Source of the DNA: Minisyncoccia bacterium
GTDB taxonomy: Bacteria; Patescibacteriota; Minisyncoccia; SW-4-49-11
Assembly (NCBI GenBank): GCA_044356725.1
Contig: JBIKVS010000010.1
Coordinates: 1 to 38,152, forward strand
Direction: 5' to 3'
DNA: 38,152 bases
The notes beneath the pieces were generated by a model, which saw only the letters and a list, made by a program, of their open reading frames with translations, ran no database searches and was not told where the DNA came from. Shown here piece after piece: positions 2,635 to 23,780 of the stretch (position 1 is the first letter of the stretch; the number at the start of each line of letters is the position of its first letter). Position numbers and translations under genes: made by a program.

Positions 2635-4137
<1,503 letters not shown>

Positions 4138-15504: not shown

Positions 15505-17118
15505 TTATTTTAATCTTATTTTTTCAAAATAATTGTTTAATTCTTTATAAAACTCGCCATTTACTGCTAAATCTTTTACAAGCTCTCCTTCATAATCATC
15601 GAACTTCATCATAGCTGCACTGGTGTCTACATCAAAAATTTCACTTGGTTTTACAGCTGGTTTGGTATCTGAGATTCCATCCCAAGAATTTATACTAAAT
15701 ATTCTAGTAAGCCCAATATCCCAAGTAGGATCTAAGATAATCCATTTATTATTTATCAAGACCTCTAGCCAAACATGTTCTGCATTATCATTATGTTCGG
15801 CTTTCATTACCTCCTCTGGAATATTTAACTGACTCCATAAAAATGTACATATTCTATATCTACATTCTAAACCTTCTGATTCTAATAGATTTTTGAGTAG
15901 TTCAACTTTATACAGACAACTCCCCCCATACTCACCTTCTGTCTCATCTAAGGCTAAGGGTATTCTATAAGGTATATCTCGAATTTGATTAAAAATTTCT
16001 ATTAAATTATTTATTTTCATAATTACCAAACCCTCTGGGTCAAGATATAATCTGCCTATTTTATAATCCGCATAGCCTTCTGGTCTGTTATTATTAACCG
16101 CATATTTACCTTCTGGAGGATTGGGTATGCTATGCACAGTTTTGAATTGATTATATAACATCACAGTTCTATCGGCATTATAATGCTCATGATAATAACT
16201 TGCTGGACCTTTTATCTGATGATGTACGAAGACTTCCCAATTAATTTGCTCAGTTATAAATTCTATATATGGACCATGATCCCCATAGACTACTCTCTCA
16301 TAGCCTATAGCTAAAATTTTTCCATTTTTATCATAAAATACAAATTCATTTGACCCTTTTTCTGGTAAATTATATTCTTTTTCTATTCTCTGACGGTCTC
16401 GCTCACGATTCGGACTATTGACTGTGGAATAGAATTCACTAGGCTTAGGTGTGGCTATAGGTAAATCCATCCCAACCGCCTGCCAAGACTGATTTAATAG
16501 TTTGTCAAATTCTGCTTTAGATGTATTCTCCAGCTCGATGTAGAATTTGTGTGGATTTGGAGTGTTTTCTTGAATATTATCTTGTACATTAAACTTGGGG
16601 TTCATCCTTAAAATAACATCTTTACGGTTTGGATATTCCTTCATTCCATCATTTGTAAACCCAAAGGAAGTATATAGATTTATAACATATTGATTCCAAA
16701 CTGCTGAGTTATTTTGAATACTATAATTAACAGATCCTTTTAGATGGTAAAATTTTATATTAAGTTCTAACCATAGTTTCAATAACTGTTTGGCAATACC
16801 TTGCCTTCTATAATTTGATTTTACAGCTAATTCAGATATATATATAGTATTTTGGGGATAGAGATTATTATTTTCTGATTGCCTTTCATAGGCTATAATT
16901 ATAGCTATTGGTGTTTTATTATCAAAAACTATAAGACTATGCTCCCATTTCCCATAGAATATTCTATCTTTTTTATAATCTGCTAAAATATCTTGCTCTT
17001 TATATTCAACTAAAGGAATATCATTGACTAAATTAGTTATTTGTTTACTATATATTTTAGCTATATCTTTATCTAATTTATATACAATGTATTTTCCAAT
17101 TTGTCCAACTTCTTTCAT
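15505..17118 (-). CDS. Three-domain fusion: GNAT acetyltransferase + uncharacterised domain + transglutaminase-like domain
   Basis: LAVKSNYRRQGIA..LY.SFGF (GNAT); central GYERVVYGDHGPYIEF...GYADYKIG; C-terminal Cys (SCLYK), His (EHVWLEV), Asp (LDPTWD) pattern. Confidence 0.75.
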   Translation of the reverse strand: MKEVGQIGKYIVYKLDKDIAKIYSKQITNLVNDIPLVEYKEQDILADYKKDRIFYGKWEHSLIVFDNKTPIAIIIAYERQSENNNLYPQNTIYISELAVKSNYRRQGIAKQLLKLWLELNIKFYHLKGSVNYSIQNNSAVWNQYVINLYTSFGFTNDGMKEYPNRKDVILRMNPKFNVQDNIQENTPNPHKFYIELENTSKAEFDKLLNQSWQAVGMDLPIATPKPSEFYSTVNSPNRERDRQRIEKEYNLPEKGSNEFVFYDKNGKILAIGYERVVYGDHGPYIEFITEQINWEVFVHHQIKGPASYYHEHYNADRTVMLYNQFKTVHSIPNPPEGKYAVNNNRPEGYADYKIGRLYLDPEGLVIMKINNLIEIFNQIRDIPYRIPLALDETEGEYGGSCLYKVELLKNLLESEGLECRYRICTFLWSQLNIPEEVMKAEHNDNAEHVWLEVLINNKWIILDPTWDIGLTRIFSINSWDGISDTKPAVKPSEIFDVDTSAAMMKFDDYEGELVKDLAVNGEFYKELNNYFEKIRLK

Positions 17119-17826: not shown

Positions 17827-17844
17827 TATTTTATTGTCTTTTTA

Positions 17845-17872
17845 CAGTAACCACATACGCAGTGTTAGCTGA
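17845..17872 (-). other. Collapsed attC-like site (R'' box joined almost directly to next R'-like box)
   Basis: Minus strand TCAGCTAAC-ACTGCGTATGTG-GTTACTG; AGCTAAC is complementary to the GTTAGCT core at the 5' end of the same cassette (18519-18525). Confidence 0.55.
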
Positions 17873-17921
17873 TGTAATGTAGATTTTTCTTTTGGCGACA
17901 GCCAAACAAATAAAAGAGCAA

Positions 17922-18455
17922 TTATTTTTCGTCGTTTTTTGGAATCCAATAATCTCTAAATGTCCATGTTGTTCCTCTGGCCGTTGTTTTCTCATATTCT
18001 CTATGGACTTTACCACCAAGTGACTCTGCTAATTTACAACTTGATTTATTCGCAACCGCACAAGGCCAGAGGATATGACCATATTCAAGATGCTCTTCAG
18101 CCCATTGCTTAAGAGCTGCTGCGGCTTCTCTGCCATAACCGTGACCATGAGCAGATTTTTTTAGCCATCCACCCATTTCAGGATTTTCTTCTTGGAGATC
18201 TTCCAGAGCCATACAGCCAATAAACTCTCCAGTTTCTTTTAGCAAAATAGCCATGAATAACTGCACGCCTTCTTTCATTTCAGTTTCACGATTTTTCATC
18301 CGTCCTTTTAAAATTTCTAGACTTTCTGGCGGGCCATAGTTCATATATTTAATGACTGGATCACGATATTCTAAAAAAATATTCTCCGCAAAATCTACAT
18401 TTCCAGACACTAATAGCAGTCGCTCTGATTCTATTTTTACTTTGCTTAAATTCAT
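17922..18455 (-). CDS. GNAT N-acetyltransferase, RimJ/RimL family (cassette gene)
   Basis: IESERLLL, GEFIGC, HGHGYGREAA and N..S.KLAESLG motifs. Confidence 0.9.
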   Translation of the reverse strand: MNLSKVKIESERLLLVSGNVDFAENIFLEYRDPVIKYMNYGPPESLEILKGRMKNRETEMKEGVQLFMAILLKETGEFIGCMALEDLQEENPEMGGWLKKSAHGHGYGREAAAALKQWAEEHLEYGHILWPCAVANKSSCKLAESLGGKVHREYEKTTARGTTWTFRDYWIPKNDEK

Positions 18456-18521
18456 ACTAAAAAAATAATTGCTCTTTTATTTTATGTCCGAAGGAGCAAG
18501 AAAGATATAAGTTATCTCAGC

Positions 18522-18659
18522 TAACACAAATTTTTGCGAAGTTCGACTATTAATCGCAAATTAAATGTATTTATATAATATCATTTTTAATTATTTTATA
18601 CCAGTGTATATAAATTATATATAAATATATGATTAGGAATTTTTTAATTTCATATTTTA
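18522..18659 (-). repeat. 138-bp direct repeat copy 1; attI-like site ending at a GTT core
   Basis: Aligns without gaps to 19886-20023 with about 11 mismatches by hand count; similarity stops at GTGTTA|G. Confidence 0.85.
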
Positions 18660-18701
18660 CTACTATGTACTTACAATATTATAACATATTTTAACTTCCC
18701 A

Positions 18702-18739
18702 AAACAAAAAAGTCCTTGCAATGATCTACTTTCCCCACT
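18702..18739 (-). repeat. Perfect 38-bp duplicate of 5S rRNA 3' end plus trailing T tract (att-like)
   Basis: aaacaaaaaagtccttgcaatgatctactttccccact is identical to 20538-20575. Confidence 0.92.
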
Positions 18740-18751
18740 TTTTCAAAAATT

Positions 18752-19147
18752 TTAATATCTATCCTTAATATATTTAAGAACTTCTATATCGTGGTCAATA
18801 ATTTTTAGCCCATCAATTTCTGAAAGATGAAACCAACCAAGATTTTGACCTTCACATAAAGTGAGTTTTTTACTAGGATCATATTCTTCCATAAAAATAT
18901 GTTTTTCGTTAGTTTCGTTTTTCCACAAAAAATCTTGCTTTAATATTAATCTCGGGTTTTGGAGAGTGTAATTCAACTCTTCAAGTGTTTCTCTCCTAAC
19001 GGCTTTTTCAGGAGTTTCACCAGCTTCAATACCTCCACCGAAAAAAGCCCAATATCCTGGTAAGTTTTTTGCATCCTCAGTACGATGCTGAAGCAATATT
19101 TTTTTGTCTTTATCATACAATATGATAATAGCTAAGTTTCTTGCCAT
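18752..19147 (-). CDS. NUDIX hydrolase
   Basis: Nudix box [22 protein letters not shown]. Confidence 0.93.
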
Positions 19148-19193
19148 ATAGAAATTCTTAAATTTAAACTTAAATTTTACTTGATGGGCAGAT

Positions 19194-19259
19194 CACATAA
19201 AAAGTATACAAGAAAAAAGAAGCTTTTGGAAGTATATTTTGTATAGTTGCTGTTATGTG
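19194..19259 (-). other. Degenerate attC-like site
   Basis: Minus strand CACATAAC-AGCAAC-TATACAA...TTGTATA-CTTT-TTATGTG; the gene stop codon lies inside ACATAAC, which is complementary to GTTATGT at 19883-19889. Confidence 0.6.
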
Positions 19260-19837
19260 CTGGGCGGTGTTTCCATGATATTTATACCTTTTGATTTTAA
19301 ATAAATGTAAAAATCAGAATAATTTACAATATCATTTTCAAGAACAGCTTCATATATATCAGTACTATAAAATTCTTTTCGATAATTTATTTGCTTATAA
19401 CATTTAGATTTAATATCAAGAATTATTTCCCTATTGGATTTATTTAGTAAATTGCATATTTTAGAGGTATATGAATTTAATTTTTCGAATTCATTTTCAT
19501 TGATATACCAAATATCAATTTTCCATTTATTATTATAAGAATCTTTAAGATAAATTCCCCAGTATAAACCAACAGGTAAATGCTTTGCTTTTAATAAGTA
19601 TTCATTTCTCCAATGCATTTTCGAAGGAGTAAAATGGGATTCAATTTGTTTCCCTAATTCGAAAAATTGTTGTCTGGATATTTCATTATTTACAAGATAA
19701 ATATCTAAATCTCTCCATGTCATCAGATTGAGTTTATAGCTACCATGCAGATTTACAACACCATATTTTTCGAGAATATTGTGTAATTTATTATGGTATA
19801 GAATATTGTCGGCTTCACTTTTTAAAATATCATTCAT
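19253..19837 (-). CDS. Pol-beta-like nucleotidyltransferase-fold protein (cassette gene)
   Basis: hGSY..nLMtwrDLDI motif and a later WKIDIW strand. Confidence 0.7.
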   Translation of the reverse strand: MNDILKSEADNILYHNKLHNILEKYGVVNLHGSYKLNLMTWRDLDIYLVNNEISRQQFFELGKQIESHFTPSKMHWRNEYLLKAKHLPVGLYWGIYLKDSYNNKWKIDIWYINENEFEKLNSYTSKICNLLNKSNREIILDIKSKCYKQINYRKEFYSTDIYEAVLENDIVNYSDFYIYLKSKGINIMETPPST

Positions 19838-19885
19838 AAAAATAATCCATAAATTATTGAATCCGTTTCAAAGCTGTCTTGTACA

Positions 19886-20023
19886 TAACACTAATTTTTG
19901 CGAAGTTCGACTATTAATCGCAAATTAAATGTAGTTATATAATATCATTTTTAATTATTTTATTCTAGTATGTATAAATTATGCATAAATATATGATTAC
20001 GAAGTTTTTAATTTCATACTTTA
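19886..20023 (-). repeat. 138-bp direct repeat copy 2; attI-like site ending at a GTT core
   Basis: See copy 1; ends GTGTTA|TGT. Confidence 0.85.
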
Positions 20024-20097: not shown

Positions 20098-20126
20098 TTG
20101 ACATTTTTAATATTTTATGGTATAAT
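20098..20126 (+). promoter_or_regulatory. Consensus sigma70 promoter of orphan gene
   Basis: TTGACA-17 nt (ending TGG)-TATAAT, perfect consensus. Confidence 0.85.
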
Positions 20127-20153
20127 GACTTTTGTAAATTTGAGGAAACTCTA

Positions 20154-20477
20154 GTGCTTTTATCAGAACAACCTGAATACCACGAAATGATTCGGGGTAT
20201 TCTCGAAGATGGTCCGCTCTCACCGAGAAGACTACTCGAAAAAGTTATTTTGGATACCAGTGGATGCAATCCCAACAGTGAATTTGGTATCCAACATGCT
20301 CTAGAATGCTTTCTGGGATTCTCGATTCCAGAAGGTGAAGAGGAAGGATTTGTATTCCTCCAGGGAGATTTGGTAAGAGCAACCACAATTAGTTATGACA
20401 TCCTTCTCAAGGATAGTCAGTCTATATGGAATGATATTTGCGACATTCCAGACGTAGAAATACCACATCAGACTTGA
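20154..20477 (+). CDS. Hypothetical acidic protein (orphan module)
   Basis: GTG start with GAGGA SD, own promoter and terminator; 107 aa. Confidence 0.7.
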   Translation: MLLSEQPEYHEMIRGILEDGPLSPRRLLEKVILDTSGCNPNSEFGIQHALECFLGFSIPEGEEEGFVFLQGDLVRATTISYDILLKDSQSIWNDICDIPDVEIPHQT

Positions 20478-20503
20478 TACTTCACCACTCTCCAAGCATT
20501 CCC

Positions 20504-20535
20504 ACCTCAGTCAGCAATGGCTGGGGTCTTTTTTT
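20504..20535 (+). terminator. Intrinsic terminator
   Basis: ACCTCAGTCA-GCAA-TGGCTGGGGT followed by C and a T7 tract. Confidence 0.8.
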
Positions 20536-20546
20536 ATAAACAAAAA

Positions 20547-20659
20547 AGTCCTTGCAATGATCTACTTTCCCCACTAGGAGTATCATCGACTCACAGAGGC
20601 TTAACTTCTAGGTTCGGAATGTAACTAGGTGGACCCCTCTGCGATAAATCACAAGGACA
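20547..20659 (-). rRNA. rrf: 5S ribosomal RNA
   Basis: Terminal helix GTCCTTG/CAAGGAC, CCGAAC loop and GAAGTTAAG motif; lies downstream of 23S. Confidence 0.95.
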
Positions 20660-20770
20660 TTTTTGTTCTCGAACACAAGATTATCTAAAAAAGATAATCT
20701 TATGCTCCAGAATTGGTGTAAATTTAGGTAATGCAATACTACATTCTCTTGAGTATCAATCAAAAGTTAA

Positions 20771-23780
<3,010 letters not shown>

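Follow-up and report, generated by a model that had tools for sequence, protein, structure and literature searches.

In the 38,152-nt window analysed here (the whole stretch of contig JBIKVS010000010.1, assembly GCA_044356725.1, from a Minisyncoccia bacterium), two copies of a 138-bp direct repeat lie downstream of the 5S rRNA gene, at 18522–18659 (copy 1) and 19886–20023 (copy 2). We conclude, with a probability of roughly 0.7, that each copy is the relic of a recombination platform consisting of the stub of a tyrosine recombinase gene, a control region and a dif-like site, at which cassettes are joined in relatives between G and TT (hereafter G/TT). The genome under study (G000) is represented by an assembly of 897,185 bases with 99% completeness; genomes and loci used for comparison carry the prefixes G and L, respectively. 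Arm matches, stub lengths and tRNA orientation were counted by reading the sequences and not with a scoring tool.

A repeat search identified this as a single 138-nt direct repeat in the window, with ungapped copies 1364 bp apart. Base-by-base counting gave 127 of 138 identical positions (92%), and nine of the 11 mismatches (minus-strand positions 5, 20, 24, 40, 41, 52, 54, 58, 60, 90, and 132) fall in the distal 60 nt, in agreement with an earlier note that had read spacing, number and distal clustering of the mismatches from the sequence by eye. The inverted repeat TTTGCGA/TCGCAAA described in the same note is likewise present inside both copies (18533–18560 and 19897–19924). Because a search of the whole assembly returned these two copies only (E 6.8e-68 and 7.7e-53), the repeat is real and far beyond chance; the next-best match is a 39-nt AT-rich stretch (E 1.6e-5). 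Identity between the copies stops after GTGTTA, and the next 30 nt are wholly unlike (GCTGAGATAAC... versus TGTACAAGACA...). On the other side the repeated unit exceeds 138 bp and runs from inside the 5S gene to GTGTTA, since an exact 38-nt copy of the 5S 3' end precedes each 138-bp copy. Each copy contains a 10-codon recombinase stub on the plus strand, a divergent intergenic region, and a 29-bp dif-like site on the minus strand. The copies did not arise by recent local duplication, as copy 2 is more similar to the related locus L042 (95.2% identical) than to copy 1 (92%).

The identity of the stub was revealed by locus L045 from a metagenome relative, in which an intact recombinase open reading frame (ORF) of 277 amino acids (aa) lies between the 5S gene and the repeat, divergent from the core of the repeat and with its start within the distal part of the repeat. 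The encoded protein has a Phage_integrase domain (Pfam PF00589, E 3.7e-42) and an N-terminal SAM-like domain. The stub of copy 2, MHKYMITKFL, equals its first 10 residues, and the DNA of L045 (2399–2527) is 91.5% identical to the window (20011–19883). Because the stubs differ between G000, G002 (about 36 codons), L042 (about 45 codons), and L047 and G005 (none), the gene was lost across the clade leaving remnants of four lengths, and it is gone from all seven recombinase-less platforms of the clade. The deletion joints of copies 1 and 2 differ, both lying within a 13-nt stretch that, by reading, is similar between the 5S trailer and codons 7–11. G000 has only one tyrosine recombinase, which is XerC/D-like, comprises 347 aa and is encoded on contig C19; serine recombinases were not found in this genome. 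Homologues of the L045 recombinase (35–46% identity) are present in 34 of 401 genomes of the class and in none of the 11 other genomes of the genus. Exactly two tyrosine recombinases, one of the L045 type and a longer one, were found in each of five carrier genomes checked; the enzyme kept by G000 is of the longer type only.

Among curated profiles, the L045 protein scores highest with NF040815 (XerA/'site-specific tyrosine recombinase/integron integrase'; 216.5 bits, cut-off 220), followed by TIGR02249 (integron integrase; 208 bits in two stretches, cut-off 265), XerD (201.5 bits versus a cut-off of 329.6), and XerC (192.3 versus 335). Its best PDB match is IntI4 (2a3v, E 1.1e-37), with residues 11–184 aligned to 11–184 and 207–273 to 250–316. 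As the alignment skips the IntI4 stretch in between, the protein is without about 43 residues where IntI has its specific domain, described in PMC4889954 as about 35 residues near patch III; the same source requires an integrase gene adjoining the site for an integron. The L045 recombinase does not have the IntI-specific domain, and a recombinase gene adjoins the site in the relative L045 only and not in G000. A 'Cand' subgroup of Xer-related recombinases from candidate phyla, with an assumed role in chromosome maintenance, is described in PMC8138268.

The putative recombination site on the minus strand is a 29-bp dif-like sequence with two 11-bp arms around a 7-bp centre, and GTGTTA spans the border of centre and right arm. 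The same layout of two sites recurs upstream of recombinase homologues across families, and the sequences differ beyond it. The first site, (A)CTTCG(C/T)ATAATATACAA, lies about 45 nt from the recombinase start codon and the second, (A)CTTCG(C/T)ATA(T/A)AAACGAGTT(A/G)NNNGAAAT, about 25 nt further on; in G000, ACTTCGCAAAAATTTGTGTTAGCTGAGAT corresponds to the second. We aligned 30 sites on G/TT, 22 of them from other families and eight from this clade, and excluded three truncated loci. On average, a position contains 0.99 bits of information in the left arm (11 nt), 1.15 in the centre (7 nt), and 0.97 in the right arm (11 nt), compared with 0.32 upstream and 0.12 beyond +11. A right arm resembling TTRNNNGAAAT is therefore still conserved after G/TT, on unrelated cargo. 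The claim of the earlier note that identity ends exactly at the predicted crossover is not supported in that form, since the 11-nt right arm is retained across the 30 sites.

The strict pattern ATANNAACSAGTTRNNNGAAAT occurs at 31 places in 28 of the 401 genomes, and its reversed control at none. It was detected in 14 of 34 recombinase-positive genomes versus 14 of 367 others, and in 13 of the 14 pattern-positive carriers the match lies at most 170 nt from the recombinase gene. Two or three pattern copies on different contigs of G330 and G177 suggest several platforms per genome. Fourteen genomes have the strict pattern and no recombinase match at E 1e-45 or better. Half-sites of 11 bp around a centre of 6–8 bp are the rule for Xer sites according to PMC5357621, and the 11-7-11 layout with conserved arms conforms to it. 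Compared with the Thiobacillus dif, ACTTCGCATAA TGTATA TTATGTTAAAT, as given in the dif table of PMC2731167, the left arm of G000 matches at 10 of 11 positions, the right arm of L045, L066, and L077 (TTATGTGAAAT) at 10 of 11, and the right arms of copies 1 and 2 at seven and eight of 11, respectively; the centre has 7 nt versus 6 in Thiobacillus. Two candidates for the chromosomal dif of G000 were rejected. One was the palindrome itself, whose arms face outward and which is found, as the core or as TTTGCGA-N14-TCGCAAA with at most one mismatch, in only three of 12 genomes of the genus; the other, at C18:59771, is the start of a GTPase gene (lepA-like by eye) and is present in only two of 17 genomes of the family.

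The 34-nt core TTAATTTGCGATTAATAGTCGAACTTCGCAAAAA is the same in both copies of G000, in G005, and in G002, and was not found with up to three mismatches in the other 398 of the 401 class genomes searched, so that three of 12 genomes of the genus have it and nine do not. An exact scan of metagenome contigs with a 28-nt core added seven more contigs. These 11 occurrences have eight different downstream sequences, sharing the core followed by AAYTNGTG(T/G)T and then diverging. Homology running past GTT into a shared gene, which the earlier note had named as the sign of an ordinary duplicated promoter, was never seen among them. As in integrons, there is a fixed joining point on a platform with cargo that differs among relatives. 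The surrounding interval is variable throughout the genus: in all eight same-genus genomes fetched, the 23S-5S genes and tRNA-Gln enclose 1.6 to 9.4 kb of differing content.

Comparison of relatives showed cassettes gained or lost with both ends at G/TT in two cases (L045/L046 and L102). L046 is 97.6% identical to L045 up to GTGTT, and then continues with part of a structured repeat (98.8%) that in L045 is found behind a cassette for a C5-methylase and an HNH protein. Because L046 jumps from GTGTT to this part, the two loci are one cassette apart with both ends at G/TT. In L102 the platform is followed by a 166-nt part of such a repeat, two ORFs, the left part of a repeat, the same 166 nt (96%), and the next cassette. 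These elements, here called S repeats, are GC-rich, structured, about 170–290 nt long, and situated between cassettes (L047, L045, L046, L102, G002, G005). Their hairpin starting at G/TT has six or seven different stems and a common loop motif (ATCGCTTCGCTC-like), with the polarity 5'-GTT...AAC-3' as judged by eye. No Rfam family matched the core or the S repeats, for which only sub-threshold matches to miRNA hairpins were obtained. The array in L047 has three cassettes, in the order 5S gene, core and site, a first cassette bracketed by inverted repeats, S repeat, a cassette for a 120-aa membrane protein, S repeat, and a third cassette; its S copies measure 263 and 276 nt between anchors and are 93.5% identical over the 3' 155 nt. 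At least one cassette brings its own cis-regulatory RNA, as a DUF805 RNA motif precedes the gene of the third L047 cassette (Rfam RF03081, 70.1 bits, L047 344–411, minus strand).

In 10 of the 18 loci that were extended on the cargo side, an inverted repeat starting at most 60 nt after the site brackets the first cassette, and direct repeats at least 400 nt apart were read from the repeat list in eight of 18. The first ORF of at least 80 aa points away from the recombinase gene in 16 of 18 (one of the 16 is ambiguous). L045 and L079 are 94.8% identical over the 134 nt just past the junction, and have recombinases of 37% identity and different left arms. In L063 a small element sits in the site; it begins like a right arm and ends like a left arm, with the original right arm behind it. 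A 792-bp methyltransferase cassette is 97.6% identical at different positions in L043 (5339–6130) and G002 (1372–2163, oriented), which represent two species with 5S genes of 96% identity. This cassette is flanked by the motif GGGT(A/C)TCCCACA-N-AATATG(G/T)TATAAT, which is also present twice in G005.

In the window, the sense strand of the locus is the minus strand, along which the following features were identified:

20771–23777, minus: 23S rRNA gene (Rfam RF02541, 2412.9 bits).
20549–20656, minus: 5S rRNA gene, downstream of the 23S gene (Rfam RF00001, 59.3 bits).
20538–20575, minus: 38-nt segment (last 27 nt of the 5S plus a T-run), the copy within the real gene of an exact direct repeat.
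20098–20527, plus: module of a 107-aa ORF (ORF at 20154–20477), between the 5S gene and copy 2.
19886–20023, minus: repeat copy 2, putative relic platform.
19981–20010, plus: recombinase stub in copy 2, codons 1–10 (MHKYMITKFL).
19897–19924, minus: 28-nt invariant core of copy 2, TTTGCGATTAATAGTCGAACTTCGCAAA.
19878–19906, minus: dif-like site of copy 2, ACTTCGCAAAA / ATTAGTG / TTATGTACAAG (compared with the dif table of PMC2731167).
19253–19837, minus: cassette gene A, 194 aa (Atlas structure match with PF01909, TM 0.78).
19202–19256, minus: S element remnant (3' part), ending GCCCA/TCAAGTAAAAT, 82% match to both L047 S copies.
18752–19147, minus: cassette gene B, NUDIX hydrolase, 131 aa (Pfam PF00293, E 1.9e-18).
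18702–18739, minus: orphan copy of the 5S 3' end (27 nt plus T-run), exact repeat of 20538–20575.
18660–18701, minus: 42-nt 5S trailer preceding copy 1, found also behind the real 5S gene in G004, G002, and L047.
18522–18659, minus: repeat copy 1, putative relic platform.
18617–18646, plus: recombinase stub in copy 1, start codon lost (ATA), IYKYMIRNFL.
18533–18560, minus: 28-nt invariant core of copy 1.
18514–18542, minus: dif-like site of copy 1, ACTTCGCAAAA / ATTTGTG / TTAGCTGAGAT.
18461–18527, minus: inner inverted repeat, proximal end of the GNAT cassette, beginning at GTGTTA.
17922–18455, minus: cassette gene C, GNAT acetyltransferase, 177 aa (Pfam PF13302, E 3.2e-19).
17847–17929, plus: inverted repeat at the distal end of the GNAT cassette (17862–17929) with the outer flank GTAACCACATACGCA (17847–17861).

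Downstream from the 5S gene the order is therefore the 107-aa ORF on the opposite strand, copy 2, the 194-aa ORF, the NUDIX gene, the 5S fragment, the 42-nt trailer, and copy 1, past which follow the GNAT gene, a 197-aa ORF, a 537-aa ORF, and tRNA-Gln. Inverted repeats of 68 nt, starting within the right arm, enclose the GNAT gene; the outer flank motif at the distal end of this cassette also occurs at cassette ends in L045 and L047. The earlier note had reported no upstream ...AAC inverse core; an inverse ...AGCTAACAC is in fact present beyond the GNAT gene at 17862–17872. The 55-nt remnant at 19202–19256 is the only match to S repeats in G000. Cassette gene A has no Pfam or NCBIfam match, and its predicted structure gives a first lead, and only a lead, to a nucleotidyltransferase fold. 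The 107-aa ORF has a 12/12 TTGACA-17-TATAAT promoter with TG and shares its terminator with the 5S gene; a homologue occupies the same place in G005 (63% aa identity), and no family was found for it by Pfam, NCBIfam, or Atlas structure search. A promoter stretch of about 50 nt from this ORF recurs at several places across genomes of the genus. The 537-aa ORF (15505–17118) encodes a GNAT domain fused to a transglutaminase-like core; its N-terminal GNAT part may be another acquired module, as relatives match the C-terminal 170–360 residues only (in one or two pieces). The 16S rRNA gene (2636–4137) is not linked to the 23S and 5S genes (20549–23777), from which about 16 kb with many genes separate it. 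Together with the 0.9-Mb genome at 99% completeness, this arrangement suggests that the organism probably belongs to the candidate phyla radiation.

The variable locus as a whole is anchored at the 3' end of the 5S gene. L043, from a strain of 99% identity, has a different insert at the same place, bounded by a 76-nt 5S repeat. The 5S 3' end thus resembles a place of repeated insertion. A 594-aa ORF of L043 (2936–4720), located between its real 5S gene and the 5S fragment, has a ricin-type beta-trefoil lectin domain (Pfam E 7.4e-16), and in L044 a diverged third copy of the 5S 3' end stands just before tRNA-Gln. In L045 the 3' ends of the recombinase and 5S genes face each other, with the recombinase stop codon about 10 nt past the 5S trailer; in eight of 30 homologue loci, a tRNA gene faces the recombinase gene in the same manner. 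Direct repeats of the 3' end of an RNA gene with an adjoining integrase, as in integrative islands, are hence found here. In the simplest reading, whole units of recombinase, platform and cassettes would lodge at the 3' ends of small RNA genes, with two of them in tandem in G000. One or two copies of the tRNA-Gln 3' end (16–19 nt) were also seen about 120–310 nt downstream of tRNA-Gln in G002, G003, G005, and G008–G011 (loci L029–L036), and none in G000; these may be remnants of a further insertion site or belong to a neighbouring tRNA.

These observations can be combined into a putative history of the repeat. A gene for a small Xer/IntI-like tyrosine recombinase would once have been encoded on the plus strand and been deleted but for its first 10 codons, and the minus strand would have kept the divergent control region and the 29-bp core site, with the left arm ACTTCGCAAAA, the 7-bp centre, and the right arm TTA.... 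In recombinase-bearing relatives, cassettes appear to join the site at G/TT and to be either bracketed by inverted right-arm copies or separated by the structured repeats of about 170–290 nt; identity between the copies would end at GTGTTA because the platform side is constant and the cargo side differs. We infer that a recombinase of the L045 type binds the arms and exchanges strands at the border of centre and right arm. Its partner site may be double-stranded or a folded single strand, both forms being conceivable because secondary centres vary (6, 7, 9, and 10 nt) and hairpins occur. Most likely, the 5S 3' end received two related elements in succession, both of which later lost the recombinase gene, and the site in G000 is today probably inert for recombination, a relic. 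Its most likely present role would be that of promoter and leader for the 194-aa gene (possibly together with the NUDIX gene) and for the GNAT gene. By reading, an extended -10-like element (TGATATTAT) is located about 20 nt upstream of the core, and the only outstanding promoter in a consensus scan was that of the 107-aa ORF. A metatranscriptome run (X1) yielded a single contig of 151 nt (17842–17992), which lies outside the repeats and is uninformative on transcription.

Several points weigh against this interpretation. No recombinase of the L045 type was found in G000 besides the 10-codon stub, and nothing can be shown to act in this genome because none is left. Only one of eight distinct platforms of the clade has kept its recombinase, and this protein falls below the cut-offs of the curated families that it matches best, the closest being 216.5 versus 220. 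Centres of secondary sites in S repeats measure 6, 9, or 10 bp, which is awkward for a classical double-strand Xer reaction, and the outer arm of the distal GNAT site resembles the dif left arm weakly (about five of nine, by reading). A weight matrix built from sites of other families ranked the site of copy 1 fifth in the genome (9.9 bits) and that of copy 2 below 8; it was not used to map further sites because it did not separate sites from the AT-rich background. The promoter scan, which bears on the presumed promoter role, returned 16 promoter-like sites versus 17.2 ± 4.0 in shuffles. How the 5S fragments and the tandem arrangement arose is inferred, and excision and integration at the site are read here from the anatomy of the sequences.

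Some of the evidence would equally be expected if the repeat were the edge of ordinary integrative islands at the 5S 3' end, that is, a conserved integrase-proximal regulatory end whose cargo differs because the islands differ. The exact direct repeats of the 5S 3' end (38 nt in G000, 76 nt in L043), the recombinase 3' end facing 5S (L045) or tRNA genes (eight of 30 homologue loci), and the divergence of the two copies (92% identical, versus 95.2% between copy 2 and L042) all agree with such islands. They leave unexplained why an 11-nt right arm is conserved on unrelated cargo, why a single cassette with both ends at G/TT sets L045 apart from L046, why repeats and cassettes alternate in arrays, and why the same leader (94.8% over 134 nt) stands on platforms with recombinases of 37% identity. 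We consider island edges an unlikely substitute for the relic platform, and only a partial rival to it, because they are compatible with it as the source of the 5S fragments. Less likely still is a chromosomal dimer-resolution module, a housekeeping Xer beside its dif that was colonised by integrative mobile elements exploiting Xer (IMEX), with the copies in G000 as pseudo-dif scars. The site is dif-like, a gene beside its site is known for xerS and difSL (PMC5357621), and the L063 element has the layout expected of an IMEX insertion; against this, the recombinase is sporadic (34 of 401 genomes, none of 11 in the genus) and has been lost from seven platforms of the clade leaving stubs of four lengths, and the five carriers checked have a second, longer tyrosine recombinase, the only type that G000 keeps. 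Nor is there one conserved dif per replicon across the genus, since the core is missing from nine of 12 genomes, present in three, and present in two direct-order copies in G000.

That the repeat is a plain duplicated promoter or operator with a 5' leader, its palindrome acting as operator or RNA hairpin and its sharp end reflecting selection in a hotspot of gene turnover, seems to us very improbable. The extended -10-like TGATATTAT upstream of the core, the co-orientation of first genes in 16 of 18 loci, and the palindrome arms, which by reading face outward, unlike dif geometry, would suit a promoter, whereas a recombinase stub inside the repeat, a homologous recombinase-linked site across families with proteins of 35–46% identity, the gain or loss of cassettes at G/TT, and a promoter scan not above shuffles would not. 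The least credible of the alternatives is the remnant of a canonical integron, an attI that lost its integrase gene. Layout (divergent recombinase gene, site, co-oriented cassettes) and best PDB match (IntI4) do recall one, but the recombinase is without the roughly 43 residues at the IntI-specific domain and reaches 208 versus the cut-off of 265 with TIGR02249, and the 170–290 nt repeats have, as judged by eye, hairpins (5'-GTT...AAC-3') of opposite polarity to the attC R''/R' pair. The attI-like label that the earlier note gave to the repeat was consequently abandoned: the recombinase has no IntI-specific domain, none of its type is left in G000, and the site is dif-like (11-7-11). Its proposal of a recombinase target survives in the form of a putative tyrosine-recombinase target, as suggested by the variable cargo, the recombinase gene divergently adjoining in L045, and gain and loss at G/TT. 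The cassette promoter that the note proposed as well would be plausible.

With its relic platforms, the locus behaves like an integron or dif-module platform, yet departs from canonical integrons wherever their defining features could be checked at the sequence level. As in integrons, a tyrosine recombinase gene is transcribed away from an adjoining site, and varied, mostly co-oriented cassettes are joined at G/TT with repeats between them. The relic in G000 is paralleled by the degraded integron forms In0 and CALIN (clusters of attC sites lacking an integron-integrase), the latter being integrase-less arrays according to PMC4889954. Unlike in integrons, the recombinase is without an IntI-specific domain, and in place of an attI the site is dif-like (11-7-11). 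Judged by eye, the repeats between cassettes are longer; they lie in part 5' of the cassette genes, and their variable stem begins with GTT. Many cassettes are bracketed by inverted repeats, and the unit is located at 3' ends of 5S or tRNA genes. The dif modules of Acinetobacter, gene modules flanked by inverted Xer-type sites and found in different contexts (as described in PMC6449649 and PMC13141974), are similar in that the GNAT cassette of G000 and the methylase/HNH cassette of L045 are bracketed by inverted right-arm copies. They differ from the present locus, which is chromosomal and not on a plasmid, has a dedicated recombinase gene at one end, a centre of 7 bp and not 6, and inverted repeats that are 25–134 nt long and cassette-specific and not just 28-bp sites.

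Single-recombinase Xer modules (xerS-difSL, xerH-difH, XerA) resemble the locus in that the gene adjoins its own two-armed site; xerS and difSL form one such module (PMC5357621). In contrast to these, the gene is here sporadic and repeatedly lost, the carriers checked possess a further tyrosine recombinase, and cargo is arranged in arrays with shared repeats. The small element in the site of L063 restores an arm at its far end, as IMEX elements do. Islands at tRNA 3' ends, such as the tycheposons of Prochlorococcus, share the recombinase 3' end facing that of a small RNA gene, partial direct repeats of the RNA gene, and tandem accretion, whereas here the target is the 5S rRNA gene and a second, dif-like site with a cassette array lies on the 5' side of the recombinase gene.

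Our literature search found no report of integron-like or dif-module-like arrays in the candidate phyla radiation (CPR)/Patescibacteria; the supplements of PMC6449649 (dif table S1) and PMC8138268 (datasets) may list related sites or proteins. We see an even chance that the platforms belong to an undescribed integron-like gene-capture system of small-genome (probably CPR) bacteria, composed of a small Xer/IntI-like recombinase without an IntI domain, a compound dif-like docking site, G/TT cassettes, and repeats of about 170–290 nt with a freely varying stem and a fixed loop in the first hairpin, lodged at the 3' ends of tRNA or 5S genes; the repeat in G000 would then be its integrase-less relic, a counterpart of CALIN or In0. 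The recombinase-site pair is testable in E. coli because the sites are short and well defined, and it could serve as a tool for site-specific recombination. Should the proposed gene-capture system be real, it would be a second, independently built integron solution from a Xer-like enzyme and dif-like sites, it would place such a system in tiny genomes thought to be poor in gene-exchange machinery, and it would bear on the origin of integron integrases from Xer-type recombinases. For these bacteria themselves, it would explain the hypervariable locus behind the rRNA genes with its restriction-modification, acetyltransferase, NUDIX, and methyltransferase genes.

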